12,348 nt of DNA from a virus (IMGVR_UViG_2671180921_000029:1-12348), one strand, 5' to 3'; counted from the stretch's first letter, positions 1-12,348 are shown. The notes: a model not told the origin generated them from the letters alone. Made by a program: numbers and translations.

Positions 1-1020
1 CTACTTACTGACCACAAGCGGCAAATCCAGTGTTGGCGTGATTTTGGTTTTACGATCGTAAATCAACACCTGATTTTCTGTTTTGTGTCCACTGAAAATT
101 TGTTTGTCGCGACTGCTGCCTTCGTAATCTGAAATCCCTTTGGCTTTTATGTCATGGAAGTTGCACCCAAACGGAACGCCGGCTTTTTGCTCGGCTGCAC
201 GTTTAGCCTGATTCCACCAGTTGTTCAGCGTCTTGGCTATTACCTTCCCGCCTTTGGTTGTGTTGATCACATATTCGCATGTGCCGGAAGATACATTTCG
301 GGCTAACTGGATCGCCGTACGTAATCGTGGAGACCATTCCTTGATTTGTTTGGTGCCGGTCTTGTTTTGCTCAATGTAAATCCCTTTGTCCATAATATCC
401 TGCCATTTCAGCTCGAGCACATCACCGAGCCTTGCCGCACAGAGATAGGATATCTCCATTGCAATACGTAACTGTGGAATTGCTTCCGCATATATCGCAG
501 CATACTGTTCATCGGTGATGTAAACAGTACGGGCTTTAAGCGTGAATTTTCTGACTCCTTTGCATGGATTATTTTGCACATACCCACGCTCATATCCCCA
601 TCCGTATACGCGACTCAGACTTGCCAGTTCATGGTTTGCCTGGGTCTTGCTCTCAAGACCCCGCTTATCCATGAAAATTCTTACCTGCTCAATTTTTACA
701 TTATCAGCAAGCATTTTCCCGAATACCGCCAGTAATGCCCTTTGATGTTGCCGATAATCTTTTTGGGTTCGGGGGGCCAGTTCTGTAAATGCAGGGGAGT
801 CCATAAACATGTGCCATAATTTAGCTACGGTCATTATGTCGTGGAGTTTTGCCTTTTCCAGTTCATAATTTTGCCAGACTTTAGCCACGCTGGTTTCCCG
901 CACTCTTCCGAGCTTTATCGTTCTTGTGCTTCCTTTGGGCTTCCATACGTAACTGTAACCATTCGATCTAACGCGCGGTGGCAGTACATTATCTTTTTTG
1001 TCTTTTCTTGGTCTTCCCAT
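1..1020 (-). CDS. int: Phage tyrosine integrase (339 aa); window begins at its stop codon, so attL lies outside the window to the left
   Basis: Long ORF at the prophage edge. C-terminal region has the tyrosine-recombinase pattern (ARLGDV..., HDIKAKG..., GHKTENQVLIYDRK with terminal catalytic Tyr candidate). Overlapped at its 5' end by a small basic xis-like ORF, as in lambda. Confidence 0.85.
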   Translation of the reverse strand: MGRPRKDKKDNVLPPRVRSNGYSYVWKPKGSTRTIKLGRVRETSVAKVWQNYELEKAKLHDIMTVAKLWHMFMDSPAFTELAPRTQKDYRQHQRALLAVFGKMLADNVKIEQVRIFMDKRGLESKTQANHELASLSRVYGWGYERGYVQNNPCKGVRKFTLKARTVYITDEQYAAIYAEAIPQLRIAMEISYLCAARLGDVLELKWQDIMDKGIYIEQNKTGTKQIKEWSPRLRTAIQLARNVSSGTCEYVINTTKGGKVIAKTLNNWWNQAKRAAEQKAGVPFGCNFHDIKAKGISDYEGSSRDKQIFSGHKTENQVLIYDRKTKITPTLDLPLVVSK

Positions 1021-1240
1021 TATTCAGTGCCTCAAAATCGGGGTCAGCAGAAACCAGTTCAGATACTTTTGACATTGCTGTTAGTCCACGTGGAATATCA
1101 CAGCGTAGAACTATCGGCTCGTTTTTAGGCCCGATTAAAAATGGGATGCCGTGCAGTCTTAACTGGTGTTGCTGTCTTGTGTATCGCTTGTATTTCGTGA
1201 TCTCTTGAATCTCTGCTGGCGATAGAGTTAATTCATACAT
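989..1240 (-). CDS. xis: Excisionase-like small DNA-binding protein (83 aa), overlapping the int start by 32 nt
   Basis: Position directly upstream of and overlapping int. Starts MYELTL (lambda Xis starts MYLTL) and ends in a basic tail (GKTKKRQKR). No clear SD upstream, so the exact start is uncertain. Confidence 0.6.
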   Translation of the reverse strand: MYELTLSPAEIQEITKYKRYTRQQHQLRLHGIPFLIGPKNEPIVLRCDIPRGLTAMSKVSELVSADPDFEALNNGKTKKRQKR

Positions 1241-1306: not shown

Positions 1307-3787
1307 TTAAAAATCAGCCTGACTCGGGATCATTTTTTGTATCGTGGCTGTAACGTATTTTGCCTGGTGACGGGCGTCATCCAGTGCATTGTGGCGCACG
1401 CCTTCGAATGGAATAAAGGTTCTGGCATCAAAGTCGATTGTTTTTCCCAGCTCAACGATTGTGCGTACATCGCGATCGTTGTGGTAGCGCCACGGGCAGG
1501 GGATGTCCAGACGTTCGTATGAGGTGCGCAAAATTGCGTTATCGAAAGTTGCACCATTACCCCATACCTGAACGAATTTTTCATCTGAGTATTCGTTGAT
1601 GAACTCCCGAAACCGCGAAAGGGCATCCTTCAGTTTTACCTGGTCTGTTAAAATGGCAGCTCTGGCTTCACTGGACTGCTTCAGCCACCATTCGATGGTT
1701 CCACCGTCAGGAACAGCCCCTGTATTCATTGCGTCAGTCAGACTGATAACGATATAAAATACTGGCCCGATTTCCCCTGTTTGTGGGTCGAAGAAAACCG
1801 CACCAATAACCACGATGGGCGCATTGGTGTTGGTTCCCATTGTTTCAAGGTCGATCATCAGGTGGTACCACACTCTGCTGGTGGATGTGATAACGTGATG
1901 ACCGTTCACCGCAATTAAGGGAGCTGCCGTCTCGCCAGTTTCATTATCGCTGGCGTGGTCCTGAGCGCTGCCAGCATTCTCCTTGTGTGGATGTTCAGCG
2001 CCTTCCATTTCCTCCGGATCATTTTCCTGAACTTCAACCTGATTCTCTTCATCGAATGTTTCCTGGTATGTTGCGTCGCCCATCACGGCGCCACAATCAG
2101 GGCAGTTGCCGCCACCGCTCTGACCGCAGGCGGTGCAGACTTTTTCCGCTTCCTGTTGCGCTACTGGCTCAGGTTGTTTCGTTTCTGGCTCGTTTTGTAA
2201 CGCATTTTGGCTGTTTTGTTCCGCTTTCTGGTCGTTCTGTTCCGTTTCTTGCTGGTTCTGATTCACTGAATCGCGGGTTTCAATCCCCTTCACCCATTTC
2301 GGATCATTCGGGTCGCTAATCCCTGCAACAAATTCACCACGTGATGCGGCGAGCAACTGATTGGCGTCAGGCTGGCTGATATTGGCTGCCTGCATAATTT
2401 TCTTTACTTCGTCAGCGGTAACTTTTACCGGTTCTGGTTGTTCAGAATTTTGTGCGGTATTTGCATTTTGCGGTAAGCCTGTGTATGTGCCATTTTTTCG
2501 GGCAAAATATTCTTCTTTTGTGATTTCAGTAGCCCCTGCAGTCAGCGCCTTATTCAGACCAGAAAGTTTGTTTGCGCGACCGTATTTTTCGCCATCCTTG
2601 TCGGTGAAGAGGAAGTAGAACGGCCCCTCACGCTCTACAGATGGTTCGATTTCCACTTTGCATTCGGTTTTTTCGTTGTCCGGAATTGCCGTTTCCACTG
2701 CATCAGTTTCTGGTACTGGCGATGAGAGAGTATCAGTTGCGCTCTGATTTGTTCCTTCATCTTCAAACACGCCCTTTGTAGTCAGGTATTCAGTAATGTA
2801 TTTGTTCAGTGCCACAGGGTCTTTGTGAATGTCGATCGGACGTTCACGGACAAGGCCAAAAATAGTCTGGCGGTCGTAGCGAAGGGCATCAGGCTGTTTG
2901 CGCATTGATGCCGAGATACGCTTCCAGTCTTCACGGTCGTTGTCGATAACTTCATTTTTTGCCCAGCGATGGATGCTGCCGTCAATGTTTCCGGCATCCA
3001 CATCACCAGGCCAGAGAGCGTAGGCCAGTTCGTCATCCAGTGTTTTCCATGTCTGCTTGTATTCGCGATGAATGGCAGCAATGACCGGGCTGATTTTTCC
3101 TGTTGAATTTTCAGTGTGCTGTTGATTGGCTCTGGCGCGGGCGAGATCAACAACAGACGTGTATTTTCCGGTTTCCTTGCGTTCACCTTCGCGACGTTTT
3201 TTCCAGATGCGCATCTCTGCCTGAATTTCGGGCCATTTGGCACCTGGCTTACATTTATGCTTAACCCACCCGATGGCATGCAGCTTAAGCTCCGGATACA
3301 TGGCGTTAACTTCTGGCATTTTCATCAACGCTTCAACGATATGTCCGTCGAATGTTGCCATGTCTTCCTGCAACAGTTCCTGCGCACTAATCACCATATC
3401 AACGGTGATGTTTTCACATGTGTCGAACTTAACCATGACAGCGTTCTGTACTTCAGGGGCCAGCTTGTCAAAAGTGACGTTCATCGGATCTGATTCAGTC
3501 TCAACCGGGACAAAGGAAGCAGAGTCCTCATCCCAGCGGTTTTCCTGCATATATTCAGCATCCCAGGAATCGAGGGCAGGGCGGGGTATACCGGGTTTAT
3601 CCTCGCAAACAAGAAATTTATAAGCGCAGTCCTGAGCAGCCGGATATTGCTCCAGGAATTGCCAGGTAAATTTGGCACGGGCGCGGCGTTCGTCACCGGC
3701 TTCAATGGCAGTGGCTACAGCAATTGCACCTTCTTCCTTTATTGCCTGTTCGTCCGGAATGGCGGCGCAAATAAAGACTTTACTCAT
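1307..3787 (-). CDS. Large phage exonuclease (826 aa) with C-terminal DEDDh/DnaQ-like 3'-5' exonuclease domain; often annotated as exodeoxyribonuclease VIII-like in related prophages
   Basis: C-terminal ~187 aa (nt ~1310-1870) carries DEDDh motifs: MIDLETMG, WGNGATFDNAIL, HNALDDARHQ. Central acidic/Gln-rich low-complexity linker and a CxxC-(9)-CxxC zinc ribbon (CTACGQSGGGNCPDCG, nt ~2090-2130). Weak SD (GAGGT, 9-nt spacer) before the ATG at 3787. Confidence 0.8.
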   Translation of the reverse strand: MSKVFICAAIPDEQAIKEEGAIAVATAIEAGDERRARAKFTWQFLEQYPAAQDCAYKFLVCEDKPGIPRPALDSWDAEYMQENRWDEDSASFVPVETESDPMNVTFDKLAPEVQNAVMVKFDTCENITVDMVISAQELLQEDMATFDGHIVEALMKMPEVNAMYPELKLHAIGWVKHKCKPGAKWPEIQAEMRIWKKRREGERKETGKYTSVVDLARARANQQHTENSTGKISPVIAAIHREYKQTWKTLDDELAYALWPGDVDAGNIDGSIHRWAKNEVIDNDREDWKRISASMRKQPDALRYDRQTIFGLVRERPIDIHKDPVALNKYITEYLTTKGVFEDEGTNQSATDTLSSPVPETDAVETAIPDNEKTECKVEIEPSVEREGPFYFLFTDKDGEKYGRANKLSGLNKALTAGATEITKEEYFARKNGTYTGLPQNANTAQNSEQPEPVKVTADEVKKIMQAANISQPDANQLLAASRGEFVAGISDPNDPKWVKGIETRDSVNQNQQETEQNDQKAEQNSQNALQNEPETKQPEPVAQQEAEKVCTACGQSGGGNCPDCGAVMGDATYQETFDEENQVEVQENDPEEMEGAEHPHKENAGSAQDHASDNETGETAAPLIAVNGHHVITSTSRVWYHLMIDLETMGTNTNAPIVVIGAVFFDPQTGEIGPVFYIVISLTDAMNTGAVPDGGTIEWWLKQSSEARAAILTDQVKLKDALSRFREFINEYSDEKFVQVWGNGATFDNAILRTSYERLDIPCPWRYHNDRDVRTIVELGKTIDFDARTFIPFEGVRHNALDDARHQAKYVTATIQKMIPSQADF

Positions 3788-3910
3788 TTTGTTTTAACCT
3801 CATGACATATTTAAGGATGAACAAATCCCTGCCATTGCTGGCATATAAGAATCAAATCTGATGTATTCATTAAGCTGAATGTCGTATTGTGGCAGTTATT
3901 TTATTACTGC

Positions 3911-4132
3911 TCACCATGACTCTGCTTTTACAGGTAAACCATCACGACCAAGGAAGACTTTAATCATGGTTTCCTTAATACAGTGTTGTGTGGAAAAATC
4001 ACGAATATAGAGCCGTTGTTTTTTAATGTTGTTTACCGAAGCAATATATGTTCTTCCTTTATGAATAACATAATCACCGGGAGTCACGCACTGACGAGGA
4101 ATCTCATCAGTTCCGAAGTGATGAGCAATCAT
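3911..4132 (-). CDS. Hypothetical small protein (73 aa); start moved to the internal ATG at 4132
   Basis: ORF-track ORF 3911..4144. The ATG at 4130-4132 is preceded by a strong SD (aaATGGAGGTaattATG), whereas the upstream ATG at 4144 has none. No recognisable motif. Confidence 0.55.
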
Positions 4133-4697
4133 AATTACCTCCATTTTTACAAATGAACTTTGTTGATGCGGTGCCTGGTGCCTCCAGGTGACGTTAACCA
4201 GTTAACAATTAATGCCGGATACAGAGAATCCACCCATAACACTGTTTTTGGTTTTAACTGTTCCGCGTGCGCTTAGCCGCATTCACCGCATCACAAAATT
4301 CACTTTAAAAAGGGCGGCAGAGCAGTCACGGAGTAAAACTGATACCGCCAAACGCCACCAGAAAATTGATAACAGAGGGCGTTGTAGCGGGGTTGTCACT
4401 TAAGCGTATGGTCAACCTGACAACCCGGTGTCCTCAACGGGGAAGGAATAACCCCGCCATACTTACCGCCGCGCCATTTCGCGGAGTGCCACAACCGGAA
4501 GCGCACGGTCGACGAAAATTTAACGACAGGCTATCTATGAACCAGCAACCTCGCCGTGCGCTTTCGCGTTATGCTCTGACTTTTCAGAGAAATATCCTTT
4601 CAGTAAACTGTCAGTGCCGGATGCTCACCCGTGTCCGGCGCACGCACTCCACTTCACCCGTGGAGAACTCCTTAATTACCAACCCTCAGGAGGGTGA

Positions 4698-5941: not shown

Positions 5942-6159
5942 CCGATCCCGGGATGCCTTCCATTCTGATGTTTGACTTCGCCCACTGAGAAACCCTCTGT
6001 TTCCCCTTAACGCCGGGGTAGCGGAACAAAAACCTGCTGCATAGTTATTAAAGTTGAACCCTGCCGTCATGTTCTTACGCCTCGGGCTGGCTACTTAACC
6101 CCTGACCACTGCCGGGTAACTCGAAGTATTGCCCTGCGTTCTGTGGGGCGGGGTGGGTT

Positions 6160-6196
6160 GGTATTTTTAGTTTAATAAACATTAAACTTAAGTCAA
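6160..6196 (-). promoter_or_regulatory. PL-like leftward early promoter (-35 TTGACT, 16-nt spacer, -10 TAAACT read on the minus strand), an inverted copy of the PR-like element
   Basis: Plus 6191-6196 agtcaa and 6169-6174 agttta are the reverse complements of the TTGACT and TAAACT hexamers at 7184-7189 and 7208-7213. The surrounding ~30 bp is an inverted near-copy of 7175-7205. Confidence 0.4.
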
Positions 6197-6280: not shown

Positions 6281-6559
6281 TTAGGGAAACTGGCGTCTTG
6301 CGTGGATCACGTTTACTACTTCAACGCTTGATGTTGTTACGCGGTATAGAATTATATAGTTAGGGTGGGCCACAATCTCACGCAAGCCAGGTACTCTGTC
6401 GCTTGGTGGGTATAAATACGGATGTTCGGATAACGGCAGCACACAACCCCTTAATCGCTGCCATAAGCGTTCAGCCGCATCTATGTCGAAACGAGCAATA
6501 TAACTGGTTATATCATCTAGGTCGGTATCTGCGTTTTCAAGCCATAACACGGGTAACAT
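6281..6559 (-). CDS. parE2: ParE/RelE-family type II toxin (92 aa), ParE2-like
   Basis: Start moved to the internal ATG (MLPVLWLENADTDLDDITSYI...), giving the canonical 92-aa size. C-terminus LREIVAHPNYIILYRVTTSSVEVVNVIHARRQFP is typical of ParE/RelE. Start lies 1 nt after the upstream antitoxin stop. The sequence matches my recollection of E. coli O157 ParE2. Confidence 0.85.
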   Translation of the reverse strand: MLPVLWLENADTDLDDITSYIARFDIDAAERLWQRLRGCVLPLSEHPYLYPPSDRVPGLREIVAHPNYIILYRVTTSSVEVVNVIHARRQFP

Positions 6560-6560
6560 T

Positions 6561-6752
6561 TTACTGCTTGCTCCGTTCCTTGCGCATTCTAGCAAAGCGT
6601 TCTGCCATTCTGCGCTCAACTTCGTCATGGGGAATTGCTGGGCGCGGATCTGCAAGGCTCGTTGCTACTTTCGCACGCAGCCATTCGTTGTAACTGTTTT
6701 CTTGTTCAATGGTTTCAAATTCAGAAACCATTGGTGAAAGGGCTCTATTCAT
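6561..6752 (-). CDS. paaA2: PaaA2-type antitoxin (63 aa)
   Basis: Internal start MNRALSPMVSEFETIEQENSYNEWLRAKV... preceded by a strong SD (GGAGGaaacATG). Size and sequence match my recollection of PaaA2. Lies immediately upstream of the ParE toxin on the same strand. Confidence 0.85.
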   Translation of the reverse strand: MNRALSPMVSEFETIEQENSYNEWLRAKVATSLADPRPAIPHDEVERRMAERFARMRKERSKQ

Positions 6753-6772: not shown

Positions 6773-7144
6773 TTAGGCGCGGCGGCATTTTTGCGCCGCA
6801 ATCCATCTCGCTATGAGATCTTCCATTGATTCTTTTTTCTGCTTTAACTCGCTGATTATCTGGCGTTGCTCATCCTCAGGGAAGGCTGAAAAAATCTGCA
6901 ATAATTCCAGTTGATTAGACGTTAACCCTGCATGTGGTGGAGAAATCTCCGGTTGTTCTGCGTATTCCGCATCCAGATACCCTTCCGGCATCCCGTATGT
7001 TTGCTCTATTCTTCTGGCAGCCTTTTCTCCAAACGAGGCCCTCCCACTCATTAGTTGAGATAGGTAGCTCTTCTCTTTGGGTGGCAGAGTTTTATCTTTA
7101 AACCACTCCTTGAGACGTAAACGGCGAATTTCTTTTTTCTGCAT
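6773..7144 (-). CDS. paaR2: PaaR2-type HTH transcriptional regulator (123 aa from the ATG at 7144), in the cI-repressor position
   Basis: XRE-type HTH-like segment (KSYLSQLMSGRASFGEKAARRIEQ). Divergent from a Cro-like gene and first gene of the paaA2-parE2 operon. Start ambiguous: ATG at 7144 (weak SD) or GTG at 7207, which would place the start inside the promoter/operator repeats. Confidence 0.75.
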   Translation of the reverse strand: MQKKEIRRLRLKEWFKDKTLPPKEKSYLSQLMSGRASFGEKAARRIEQTYGMPEGYLDAEYAEQPEISPPHAGLTSNQLELLQIFSAFPEDEQRQIISELKQKKESMEDLIARWIAAQKCRRA

Positions 7145-7183
7145 GTGGTAATTATCTTTAGTAATCACTAAACAAGCAAATAC

Positions 7184-7241
7184 TTGACTTAATGGTTTAT
7201 TAAACACTAAACTCGCAAGAAAACACTAAACCGAGGAAGGT
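7184..7241 (+). promoter_or_regulatory. PR-like rightward promoter (-35 TTGACT 7184-7189, 18-nt spacer, -10 TAAACT 7208-7213) with CACTAAAC operator-like repeats
   Basis: Hexamers at sigma70-like spacing upstream of the Cro-like gene. CACTAAAC occurs at 7166-7173, 7205-7212 and 7224-7231, overlapping the -10 and leader. SD GAGGAAGG precedes the ATG at 7242. Confidence 0.5.
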
Positions 7242-7544: not shown

Positions 7545-7966
7545 AAATCAAGCATGAACACATCCGCATGGCGATGAATGCCTGGGCGCATCCGGACGGC
7601 GAAAAAGTTCCGGCAGCTGAAATAACCCAGGCTTATTTTGAGCTGGGTATGACGTTCCCGGAGCTATATGACGACAGGCATCCGGAAGCGCTGGCTCGTA
7701 ATACCCAGAAAATTTTCCGTTGGCTGGATAAAGACACCCCTGATGCGGTTAAAAAAATTCAGGCATTGTTACCAGCGATCGAAAAAGCAATGCCTCCTCT
7801 GCTGGTGGCCCGAATGCGCAGCCACAGTTCAGCCTGGTTTCGGGAGCTGGTGGAGACGCGGGAACGACTGGTGAGAGACGCTGATGATTTTGTCGCAGTG
7901 GCGATCGCTGGTTTCAACCAGATGAATCGTGGTGGCCCGGCGGGAAACATTGTGGTTGTGCATTGA
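7541..7966 (+). CDS. YdaT-type protein (141 aa) in the CII position
   Basis: Start overlaps the upstream stop (ATGA), with GGAG SD 7 nt upstream. N-terminus MKIKHEHI... resembles the YdaT family as I recall it. Confidence 0.7.
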   Translation: MKIKHEHIRMAMNAWAHPDGEKVPAAEITQAYFELGMTFPELYDDRHPEALARNTQKIFRWLDKDTPDAVKKIQALLPAIEKAMPPLLVARMRSHSSAWFRELVETRERLVRDADDFVAVAIAGFNQMNRGGPAGNIVVVH

Positions 7967-11980: not shown

Positions 11981-12192
11981 TTTTATATTGGCGAGGTGAC
12001 GGGAGTTAAGTAGAATTGCTGCGGGTGCTTGAGGCTGTCTGCCTCAGGCATGAACACCAAAAGGCAGATAGAGAAAAGCCCCAGTTAACATTACGCGTCC
12101 TGCAAGACGCTTAACATTAATCTGAGGCCATATCTATGCTCTACACACGTAGGTTAGCCTCTTACGTGCCGAAAGGCAAGGAGAAGCAGGCT

Positions 12193-12348
12193 ATGAAGCA
12201 GCAAAAGGCGATGCTAATCGCCCTGATCGTCATCTGTTTAACCGTCATAGTGACGGCACTGGTAACGAGGAAAGACCTCTGCGAGGTACGAATCCGAACC
12301 GGCCAGACGGAGGTCGCTGTCTTCACAGCTTACGAACCTGAGGAGTAA
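12193..12348 (+). CDS. hok: Hok/Gef-family type I toxin (51 aa), HokD/RelF-like; stop codon is the last triplet of the window
   Basis: MKQQKAMLIALIVICLTVIVTALVTRKDLCEVRIRTGQTEVAVFTAYEPEE has the Hok architecture (N-terminal TM helix, then RKxLCE...). SD AAGGAG 9 nt upstream. The ORF track shows an in-frame 19-codon upstream extension from 12136. Confidence 0.85.
   Translation: MKQQKAMLIALIVICLTVIVTALVTRKDLCEVRIRTGQTEVAVFTAYEPEE

Follow-up and report, generated by a model that had tools for sequence, protein, structure and literature searches.

A RecE-family protein of lambdoid prophages with a DEDDh exonuclease domain in place of the RecE nuclease and no annealase partner

RecE (exonuclease VIII) of the Rac prophage of Escherichia coli K-12 is a 5'-3' exonuclease whose C-terminal nuclease domain (aa ~564/606-866; Pfam PF12684-like) is of the PD-(D/E)xK type, and its gene is followed, in order, by recT, ralR, rcbA and xisR. 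The part of RecE that was crystallised, and that is genetically sufficient, begins near amino acid (aa) 564-606 (reviewed in PMC11611040). The purpose of the dispensable 600-aa N-terminus of RecE is an old question. A nuclease of another fold, DexA, is a 3'-5' DNA exonuclease encoded by phage T4. We analyzed a stretch of viral DNA of 12,348 nucleotides (nt) (IMGVR_UViG_2671180921_000029:1-12348; the whole stretch is called the window below) and in it an exonuclease gene at positions 1307..3787 on the minus strand, an open reading frame (ORF) of 826 aa that runs from ATG to stop and matches PHROG 2082 ('exonuclease') over its full length. We found that the product is a chimeric member of the RecE family, in which a RecE-type scaffold carries a DEDDh domain that replaces the PD-(D/E)xK 5'-3' nuclease. 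It is a domain-swapped RecE-family protein and not a Red/RecET-type recombinase.

We found that the C-terminal part of the protein (aa 642-814; 1346..1864, minus strand) is a DEDDh 3'-5' exonuclease domain. It matches Pfam family PF16473 (Rv2179c-like) with an E-value of 1.8e-67 and 226.9 bits, against a gathering cut-off of 27, over profile positions 2-175 of 177. When the domain was aligned with T4 DexA, the catalytic pentad D646, E648, D749, H799 and D804 corresponded to D7, E9, D119, H186 and D191 of DexA. This pentad was kept in 6/6 aligned sequences, including DexA, an EcD-like protein of E. coli and gp29 of phage g341c. A structure predicted with AlphaFold2 (AF2) was confident over aa 636-822 (predicted local distance difference test score, pLDDT, >90), and the ratio of nonsynonymous to synonymous substitution rates (dN/dS), given below, is also consistent with a domain here. 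The catalytic pentad is thus complete, and 3'-5' exonuclease activity is predicted. The sole solved relative found in the PDB, by sequence (E=2e-8) or by profile (E=1.5e-10), was T4 DexA (8KEL/8KEN). Rv2179c was absent from the sequence and profile matches in the PDB and is therefore the more distant of the two. Weaker similarities of the domain were to RNase T (E=8e-5) and oligoribonuclease (E=0.015). Among phages, 1241 records have a match to the nuclease domain. No PD-(D/E)xK domain was found in the protein by Pfam, by BLASTP to RecE, or by phmmer with RecE aa 600-866, a query that does detect family members such as P0131 and P0246.

We found that much of the remaining protein is homologous to RecE. 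In a BLASTP comparison with K-12 RecE, aa 262-625 aligned with RecE aa 278-591 (E=3e-61, 39% identity overall), and identity was very high from approximately aa 470 onward, through the GISDPNDPKW motif, the zinc ribbon and the acidic tail. The homology is also visible in the DNA: blastn against the Rac region of MG1655 aligned 1914..2356 (minus strand), encoding aa 478-625, with the part of recE encoding RecE aa 458-591, at 77% nt identity. The left end of this homology, at 1914, is a mosaic junction just before the nuclease domain. The NCBIfam RecE model NF007259 gave 282.5 bits, versus a cut-off of 1269, and its best stretch covered only aa 451-626. The N-terminal RecE family PF06630 was not matched; aa 1-260 are an alternative module that is elsewhere paired with RecE-type nucleases. 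In the window, the exonuclease gene is followed after 66 nt by the excisionase gene, xis. Comparing this with the gene order of Rac, and given where the homology ends, we conclude that the swapped unit is the PD-(D/E)xK domain plus recT, ralR and rcbA on one side and the DEDDh domain on the other.

The scaffold consists of several folded segments separated by linkers. An AF2 model of aa 1-344, built from a 25-sequence alignment, had a mean pLDDT of 87 and three subdomains: an alpha/beta subdomain (aa 1-95) and two helical ones (aa 105-205 and aa 245-340), with aa 222-237 disordered. The first 260 aa (3008..3787, minus strand) make up the module that we call N-terminal 'type A', which alternates in the family with the PF06630 N-terminus of RecE. 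The third subdomain (aa 245-340; 2768..3055, minus strand) is common to RecE aa ~278-355, as judged by BLASTP and AF2, and is the module under the strongest constraint (dN/dS 0.09). It is followed by an alpha/beta mini-domain (aa 385-437; 2477..2635, minus strand; motif GPFYF...GRANK...EITKEEY.ARKNG; pLDDT ~95), which is kept in many family members and missing from K-12 RecE. A helical segment (aa 458-505; 2273..2416, minus strand; pLDDT 61-82) corresponds to RecE aa ~440-482 and bears the motif LAASRGEFVxGISDPNDPKW, which is strongly conserved even in distant family members. This segment possibly binds a partner. Two disordered linkers (pLDDT ~40 for each) flank the zinc ribbon. One, at aa 506-549 (2141..2272, minus strand), is rich in Gln, Asn and Glu, and the composition of aa 470-545 is 28% Q+N and 17% D+E. 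The other, at aa 568-635 (1883..2086, minus strand), is acidic, with 24% D+E in aa 575-640; homology to RecE stops within it, at aa 625. The zinc ribbon itself, C551xxC554-x7-C562xxC565 (2093..2137, minus strand), has its RecE counterpart at C518..C532; it gave a weak Pfam DZR match (E=0.068) and a marginal AF2 prediction (pLDDT ~68).

These results bear on the first-pass annotation of this DNA, which had described an 826-aa protein with an N-terminal region of unknown function, an acidic and Gln-rich low-complexity linker, a zinc ribbon and a C-terminal DEDDh domain of a different fold from the PD-(D/E)xK domain of RecE and lambda Exo. The ORF is intact, the Pfam match and the aligned pentad bear out the DEDDh domain, and the composition of the linker, together with its predicted disorder, agrees with the description. 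Two details needed revision. The zinc ribbon is present at aa 551-565, but its spacer is x7 and not x9. The protein is also not unrelated to RecE, given the homology from aa 262. The N-terminal region matched nothing in the Pfam copy searched, and fold searches gave no functional lead for it. Close homologues carry precomputed new Pfam families, PF27430 and PF27432, across aa 1-345.

We found that the N- and C-terminal modules of this family are freely combined. A module map made with phmmer contained all four combinations: N-type A with DEDDh (the window protein and P0121), N-type A with PD-(D/E)xK (P0131, P0200 and P0256), N-type B (that of RecE, PF06630) with DEDDh (P0128 and P0141), and N-type B with PD-(D/E)xK (K-12 RecE). 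The part outside the nuclease, aa 1-640, is confined to a small family: a search of 1.84 billion representatives with it yielded no more than 255 clusters at E<=1e-3. Many members of 680-790 aa have C-termini without a Pfam match. Eight relatives of 700-790 aa (P0125, P0130, P0133, P0136, P0155, P0165, P0187 and P0212) have N-terminal modules of the window type, and in their C-terminal 250-400 aa neither nuclease type nor any Pfam family was found. Relatives without a recognisable nuclease probably correspond to the proteins that Zheng et al. 2025 (PMC12315714) call 'RecE-2', which lack a nuclease.

The gene is under purifying selection in every module and appears to be functional. All 84 homologues examined (four phage records and 80 IMG/VR loci) were intact at 820-830 aa. 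The median dN/dS versus the window gene, calculated module by module, was 0.16 for aa 1-260, 0.09 for aa 261-345, 0.33 for aa 346-450, 0.19 for aa 451-545, 0.43 for aa 546-640 and 0.17 for the DEDDh domain. The DEDDh domain of the window is a divergent allele: its synonymous substitution rate (dS) versus most homologues was ~1.08 (window 1307-1867), compared to 0.09-0.23 for the other modules. A dS so far above that of the other modules indicates that the nuclease domain has been swapped between alleles independently of the scaffold.

We found no annealase gene with the DEDDh version of the protein. PHROG annotation of 20 other ORFs of the window revealed no annealase, and no RecT, Bet or Erf gene lies between int and the immunity region. 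Searches of the window with tblastn and phmmer gave no match for RecT (three subtypes), Bet, two Erf proteins, Gam, Abc1/2, SSB, lambda Exo or the C-terminus of RecE. The neighbors of the exonuclease gene are kilR and xis, and not the contiguous annealase, SSB and anti-RecBCD genes of a lambdoid recombination (Rec) module. In 4 records of related phages, tblastn and phmmer likewise detected no RecT, Bet or Erf. The complete genomes of phages Tritos and HannyBb yielded neither an annealase nor Gam or Abc2.

This pattern held in a larger set of loci, which we fetched from IMG/VR with the window protein, P0128 and P0131 as queries. An annealase (RecT, Bet or Erf) was present in 0/123 loci of the DEDDh type (80 with N-type A and 43 with N-type B), 114 of which had at least 1 kb of downstream DNA. 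In contrast, a RecT-family gene directly followed the nuclease in all of the PD-(D/E)xK loci with enough downstream DNA (37/37). Of the 39 PD-(D/E)xK loci in total, 33 had a Rac-type recT overlapping the stop codon, 4 had a divergent RecT-family gene, and 2 (L118 and L184) were cut by the end of the contig. L119, L153, L154 and L170 were considered as PD-(D/E)xK loci lacking RecT, and this was rejected on finding the divergent RecT-family gene (Pfam E=1e-39 to 3e-43). The first-pass annotation had proposed that no Bet/RecT-like partner lies between int and the immunity region and that the role may not be a standard Red/RecET recombination function. Both proposals are upheld by the searches of the window and by the split between the two types of locus. 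Neither a PD-(D/E)xK domain nor a RecT or Bet homologue was found within or next to the gene, and no annealase was found elsewhere in the complete Tritos and HannyBb genomes.

We found that the DEDDh-type loci are rich in Chi sites. The window has 4 Chi sites on the plus strand and 0 on the minus strand in 12.3 kb, compared to ~0.19 expected per strand. One (GCTGGTGG; 1877..1884, plus strand) is inside the exonuclease gene, and the others are at 7801, 7846 and 9756 (plus strand). The window shows only 12 kb of this prophage, and whole-genome figures are those of complete relatives, with 9+2 sites by strand in Tritos and 5+2 in HannyBb. Chi density was 0.356/kb in the 123 DEDDh loci and 0.039/kb in the 39 PD-(D/E)xK+RecT loci, with 0.031/kb expected by chance; across these IMG/VR loci (L038-L201), the density with the DEDDh-type gene was thus ~9x that with recE+recT. 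The sites in DEDDh loci were oriented mostly opposite to the gene strand (409 versus 74 on the gene strand; 5.5:1). In the phage panel of a recent study (Zheng, Casjens, Davidson, Amundsen and Smith, Genome Res 2025, PMC12315714), the lambdoid phages without a Rec module were reported to be Chi-rich, and for one of these RecBCD improved growth. The window and its relatives fit the class with no Rec module and abundant Chi (LLS functional type), as that class is defined there.

The Chi site inside the gene falls in a gap of 50 nt, bounded by 1914, where the recE homology ends, and ~1864, where the DEDDh domain starts. Tritos has a Chi site at the equivalent position of its exonuclease gene (L002 27079). 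The placing of a hotspot of recombination at this mosaic junction could be meaningful or a coincidence.

What might the protein do? It is probably a 3'-5' DNA-end exonuclease of host-dependent lambdoid phages that lack a recombination module. Our best reading, which we hold tentatively, is that it processes DNA ends or flaps in recombination-dependent replication run by host RecBCD, Chi and RecA. As a Mg2+-dependent 3'-5' exonuclease it would attack the 3' ends of DNA, whether tails, flaps or oligonucleotides. The RecE-type scaffold would deliver it to the target of RecE itself, and the protein would serve as an end-processing accessory in phages that replicate through host RecBCD-Chi-RecA recombination. 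It would not act as a two-component (SynExo) recombinase, because its predicted polarity is the opposite one and there is no annealase for it to load. This reading is favored by the DNA-recombination setting of standalone relatives like g341c gp29, and by the fact that DexA and EcD act on DNA (PMC12153337).

Several points weigh against a role in host-run recombination. The usual effect of 3'-5' exonucleases in E. coli is to reduce recombination, since they remove 3' tails, as is also remarked in PMC12315714; it is thus not obvious that the protein would promote recombination. The same paper mentions 'sporadic' DnaQ-type nuclease genes near int and leaves them out of the genes of the Rec module; the portion available makes no mention of a fusion of the nuclease to a RecE scaffold. 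A literature search turned up no published characterisation of the protein, nor any account in which a swapped nuclease sits on a RecE scaffold. From the position of its gene, the protein would be made from the early-left operon after induction or infection. The fold searches with the N-terminal region were uninformative, which makes 'targeting' by the scaffold only a guess. Finally, some standalone homologues point away from recombination, and RNA is a possible substrate; these last two points belong to the first and third of the alternatives that follow.

The protein might instead degrade DNA fragments or oligonucleotides to dNMPs that feed phage replication, much as T4 DexA does in the scavenging of host DNA. 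The standalone homologues of the CPS-53-like (P0350-like) group in Salmonella prophages, at 61% identity, point to such salvage: an annealase was present in 0/80 of their loci, and they adjoin xis-int together with a YfdR-like dNMP phosphatase, a TGT/DpdA-like protein and a PF04447 dATP/dGTP pyrophosphohydrolase. None of these nucleotide-metabolism genes is in the window, however, and it is not evident why a salvage enzyme would need a scaffold of the RecE type that strong purifying selection maintains (dN/dS 0.09-0.16). In addition, lambdoid phages are not known to degrade the host chromosome. We consider this role unlikely. On a Salmonella prophage contig (L035 2993-10005), the standalone DEDDh homologue is the last gene before xis-int and the operon also contains YfdP and YfdQ (DUF2303), which suggests a nucleotide-pool or DNA-modification cluster.

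A role in defence, in which the enzyme selectively degrades the hydroxymethylcytosine-containing DNA of invading T-even phages and so protects the lysogen by superinfection exclusion, is suggested by EcD of E. coli. Proposed to be an 'HREX' nuclease directed at T4, EcD gave E. coli protection from that phage (Kang et al. 2025, PMC12153337). DexA, EcD and the window domain share one Pfam family, and defence genes are frequent in prophages. We compared the window protein with an EcD-like sequence reconstructed from the primers in that paper. The idea that the published EcD is this C-terminal domain was rejected; the EcD-like protein is a separate protein of 189 aa, 34% identical to the domain (E=1e-32). 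The residues reported to be required for recognising 5-hydroxymethylcytosine (5hmC), W152 and D169 in DexA and W and E in EcD, are replaced by H769 and K782 in the window protein, an assignment that is moderately secure given alignment gaps nearby. The tetramer-forming Asp (D90 in DexA), the loss of which defines the dimer and which is Ala78 in EcD, is kept as D721; the equivalent of DexA S87 is K718. The window protein thus has neither the 5hmC residues nor the loss of the tetramer Asp that characterise HREX. Furthermore, PADLOC gave only a generic DEDDh match (E=4e-5) and no defence-system match beyond it, and the gene is the last before xis in a repressed early-left operon and has no promoter-like site of its own. 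A defence role would also leave the 640-aa RecE-type scaffold and the link to Chi-rich phages unexplained, and we regard it as decidedly unlikely.

Many DEDDh active sites can take RNA as well as DNA. An exoribonuclease that trims the 3' ends of RNA (phage or host transcripts, or small RNAs), as Rv2179c does, would fit the name of the Pfam family, which comes from an exoribonuclease, and the weak similarity to RNase T and oligoribonuclease. However, the only solved relative that could be detected is a DNase, the closest standalone homologues lie inside DNA recombination modules, and the scaffold is one shared with a DNA exonuclease, RecE. This role seems improbable.

We give a comparably small chance to a function in counter-defence or host takeover, in which the scaffold, with or without its nuclease, is the missing modulator of RecBCD, or in which the protein degrades the multicopy single-stranded DNA (msDNA) of retrons or signalling oligonucleotides. 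The failure to find a Gam or Abc2 homologue in these phages leaves room for such a modulator, and the retention of the scaffold with either nuclease and in nuclease-less relatives suggests that it has a function of its own. On the other hand, no similarity to a known anti-defence protein or fold was seen, and a Chi-rich genome argues that RecBCD is used and not blocked (PMC12315714). It is very improbable that the gene has no function and was merely left behind by mosaic recombination as prophages decayed: Rac recE is silent in K-12 and many database entries of the family are partial, but the partial entries are on short contigs, dN/dS is below 0.45 in all modules, the catalytic residues are all kept, 84/84 copies are intact, and the gene is found in phages isolated as virions (HannyBb) or inducible (Tritos).

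A broader version of the end-processing reading is that the RecE-family scaffold (~600 aa) may be a delivery platform for interchangeable nucleases, with the DEDDh version as a dedicated phage factor that tunes RecBCD/Chi-dependent, recombination-driven replication. We think this doubtful. There would be three options: PD-(D/E)xK with RecT, for a phage that runs its own recombination; DEDDh, for a Chi-rich phage that uses host RecBCD and RecA; and no nuclease. The tuning might be done by trimming 3' ends at the target to which the scaffold is bound. If the platform exists, the protein would be the missing 'universal' early-left gene of a large fraction of the lambdoid phages in which no Rec module is present.

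The gene lies in the leftward, repressor-proximal early operon of a Rac/Qin-like lambdoid prophage. Its ATG has a Shine-Dalgarno sequence, GAGG, 10 nt upstream. A consensus scan found no promoter-like site upstream of it on its own strand; this is weak evidence, as promoter and terminator sites were no more frequent than in shuffled sequence. Immediately upstream in the same operon is a kilR homologue (3911..4144, minus strand; 81% aa identity to Rac KilR). Downstream, xis (989..1240, minus strand; PHROG 1266) begins 66 nt past the exonuclease stop, with no gene in the gap, and int is at 1-1020 (minus strand). The gap contains an inverted repeat, CGCCGCC ... GGCGGCG, at ~1262-1296, with a 13-nt loop and without a T-run. 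This may form a hairpin that serves in RNA processing or in attenuation between exonuclease and xis. Beyond recE, blastn detected only two short stretches of DNA homology to Rac: the kilR region (3896-4317, 82% nt) and a 160-nt piece (6002-6164) that is 87% identical to the ydaG-racR intergenic region.

The remainder of the window has the features of an immunity and early region. The antisense small RNA DicF (4312-4363, minus strand; Rfam RF00039, 76 bits, full length) is encoded in the leftward operon, with the kilR homologue on one side and the next ORFs on the other. The repressor gene is at 6773-7207 (minus strand). Directly downstream of it are genes for a PaaA2-type antitoxin (6561-6752, minus strand; PF21217, E=1e-19) and a ParE-family toxin (6281-6562, minus strand; PF05016, E=5e-16), and because of this position the pair may be co-transcribed with the repressor in the lysogen. 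The rest comprises several small ORFs of unknown function and rightward cro-like, cII/YdaT-like and replication genes. Near the right end, a sok antitoxin RNA (12023-12198, plus strand; RF01794, 118 bits) extends over the beginning, at 12136, of a hok/mok-like ORF whose remainder lies past the end of the window.

Few prophage genes are as common in E. coli as this one: 3484/5426 complete genomes of the species carry at least 80% of its length. The best E. coli match to the whole window has 98.5% identity across 81%. It is also carried by phages Evi (96% nt identity over the gene) and Tritos (an LF82 prophage), HannyBb (recorded source bird faeces), mEp460_ev081 and PPompW phages (87-91%). Existing annotations are PHROG 2082, '3'-5' exonuclease' at NCBI and, often, 'exodeoxyribonuclease VIII'. 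The last implies 5'-3' chemistry and a RecET function, which the protein cannot have.

The sequence family is already in databases and the chemistry is ordinary; what is notable is the prevalence, the exclusion of RecT with the link to Chi, and the implications for the RecE N-terminus. The split between the nuclease types is a genomic marker of two phage strategies, PD-(D/E)xK with RecT in Chi-poor phages versus DEDDh without an annealase in Chi-rich ones, strategies that a study of 2025 had told apart by Rec modules and Chi content. The DEDDh gene is also a candidate for the handling of DNA ends in phages without a Rec module. It also bears on what the N-terminus of RecE is for. A scaffold that is under purifying selection with nucleases of opposite polarity should have a function that is independent of RecT and of the polarity of resection.

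Compared to described proteins, Rv2179c of Mycobacterium tuberculosis, the founder of PF16473, shares the Pfam family and the DEDDh chemistry with the window protein but is a bacterial standalone exoribonuclease. T4 DexA has the same family and pentad and is phage-encoded; it differs in being a standalone protein of 227 aa from a lytic phage, with extra loops and ~30% identity to the window domain over 139 aa. EcD, too, is standalone. The closest standalone relatives of the domain are the DnaQ-like nucleases of lambdoid recombination modules, those of g341c (gp29) and epsilon34 (PMC12315714), which are 56% identical and, like the window gene, are encoded in the early-left operon of temperate enterobacterial phages. 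The g341c gp29 type is a single domain of ~182 aa whose gene lies between ssb and abc2, beside erf; in IMG/VR, 71/80 g341c-like loci had Erf and Abc2, and 79/80 had SSB. In contrast, the window domain is fused to a RecE-type scaffold and encoded beside xis, with no annealase, SSB or Abc2 found. The Chi-like phage SAP012 also carries a standalone homologue, in an annotation too sparse to give context.

In position and architecture, a close known system is RecE/RecT of Rac. Both exonuclease genes are in the leftward early operon between kilR and xis/int, both proteins are of similar size (866 aa for RecE and 826 aa for the window protein), and both have the homologous central scaffold with the GISDPNDPKW motif, the zinc ribbon and acidic linkers. 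They differ at both ends. The first 260 aa of the window protein are a module other than the PF06630 module of RecE, and at the C-terminus the PD-(D/E)xK domain, along with RecT, has given way to a domain of predicted 3'-5' polarity, compared to 5'-3' for RecE. The phages that host the two also differ, Chi-rich for the window type and Chi-poor for loci with RecE and RecT.

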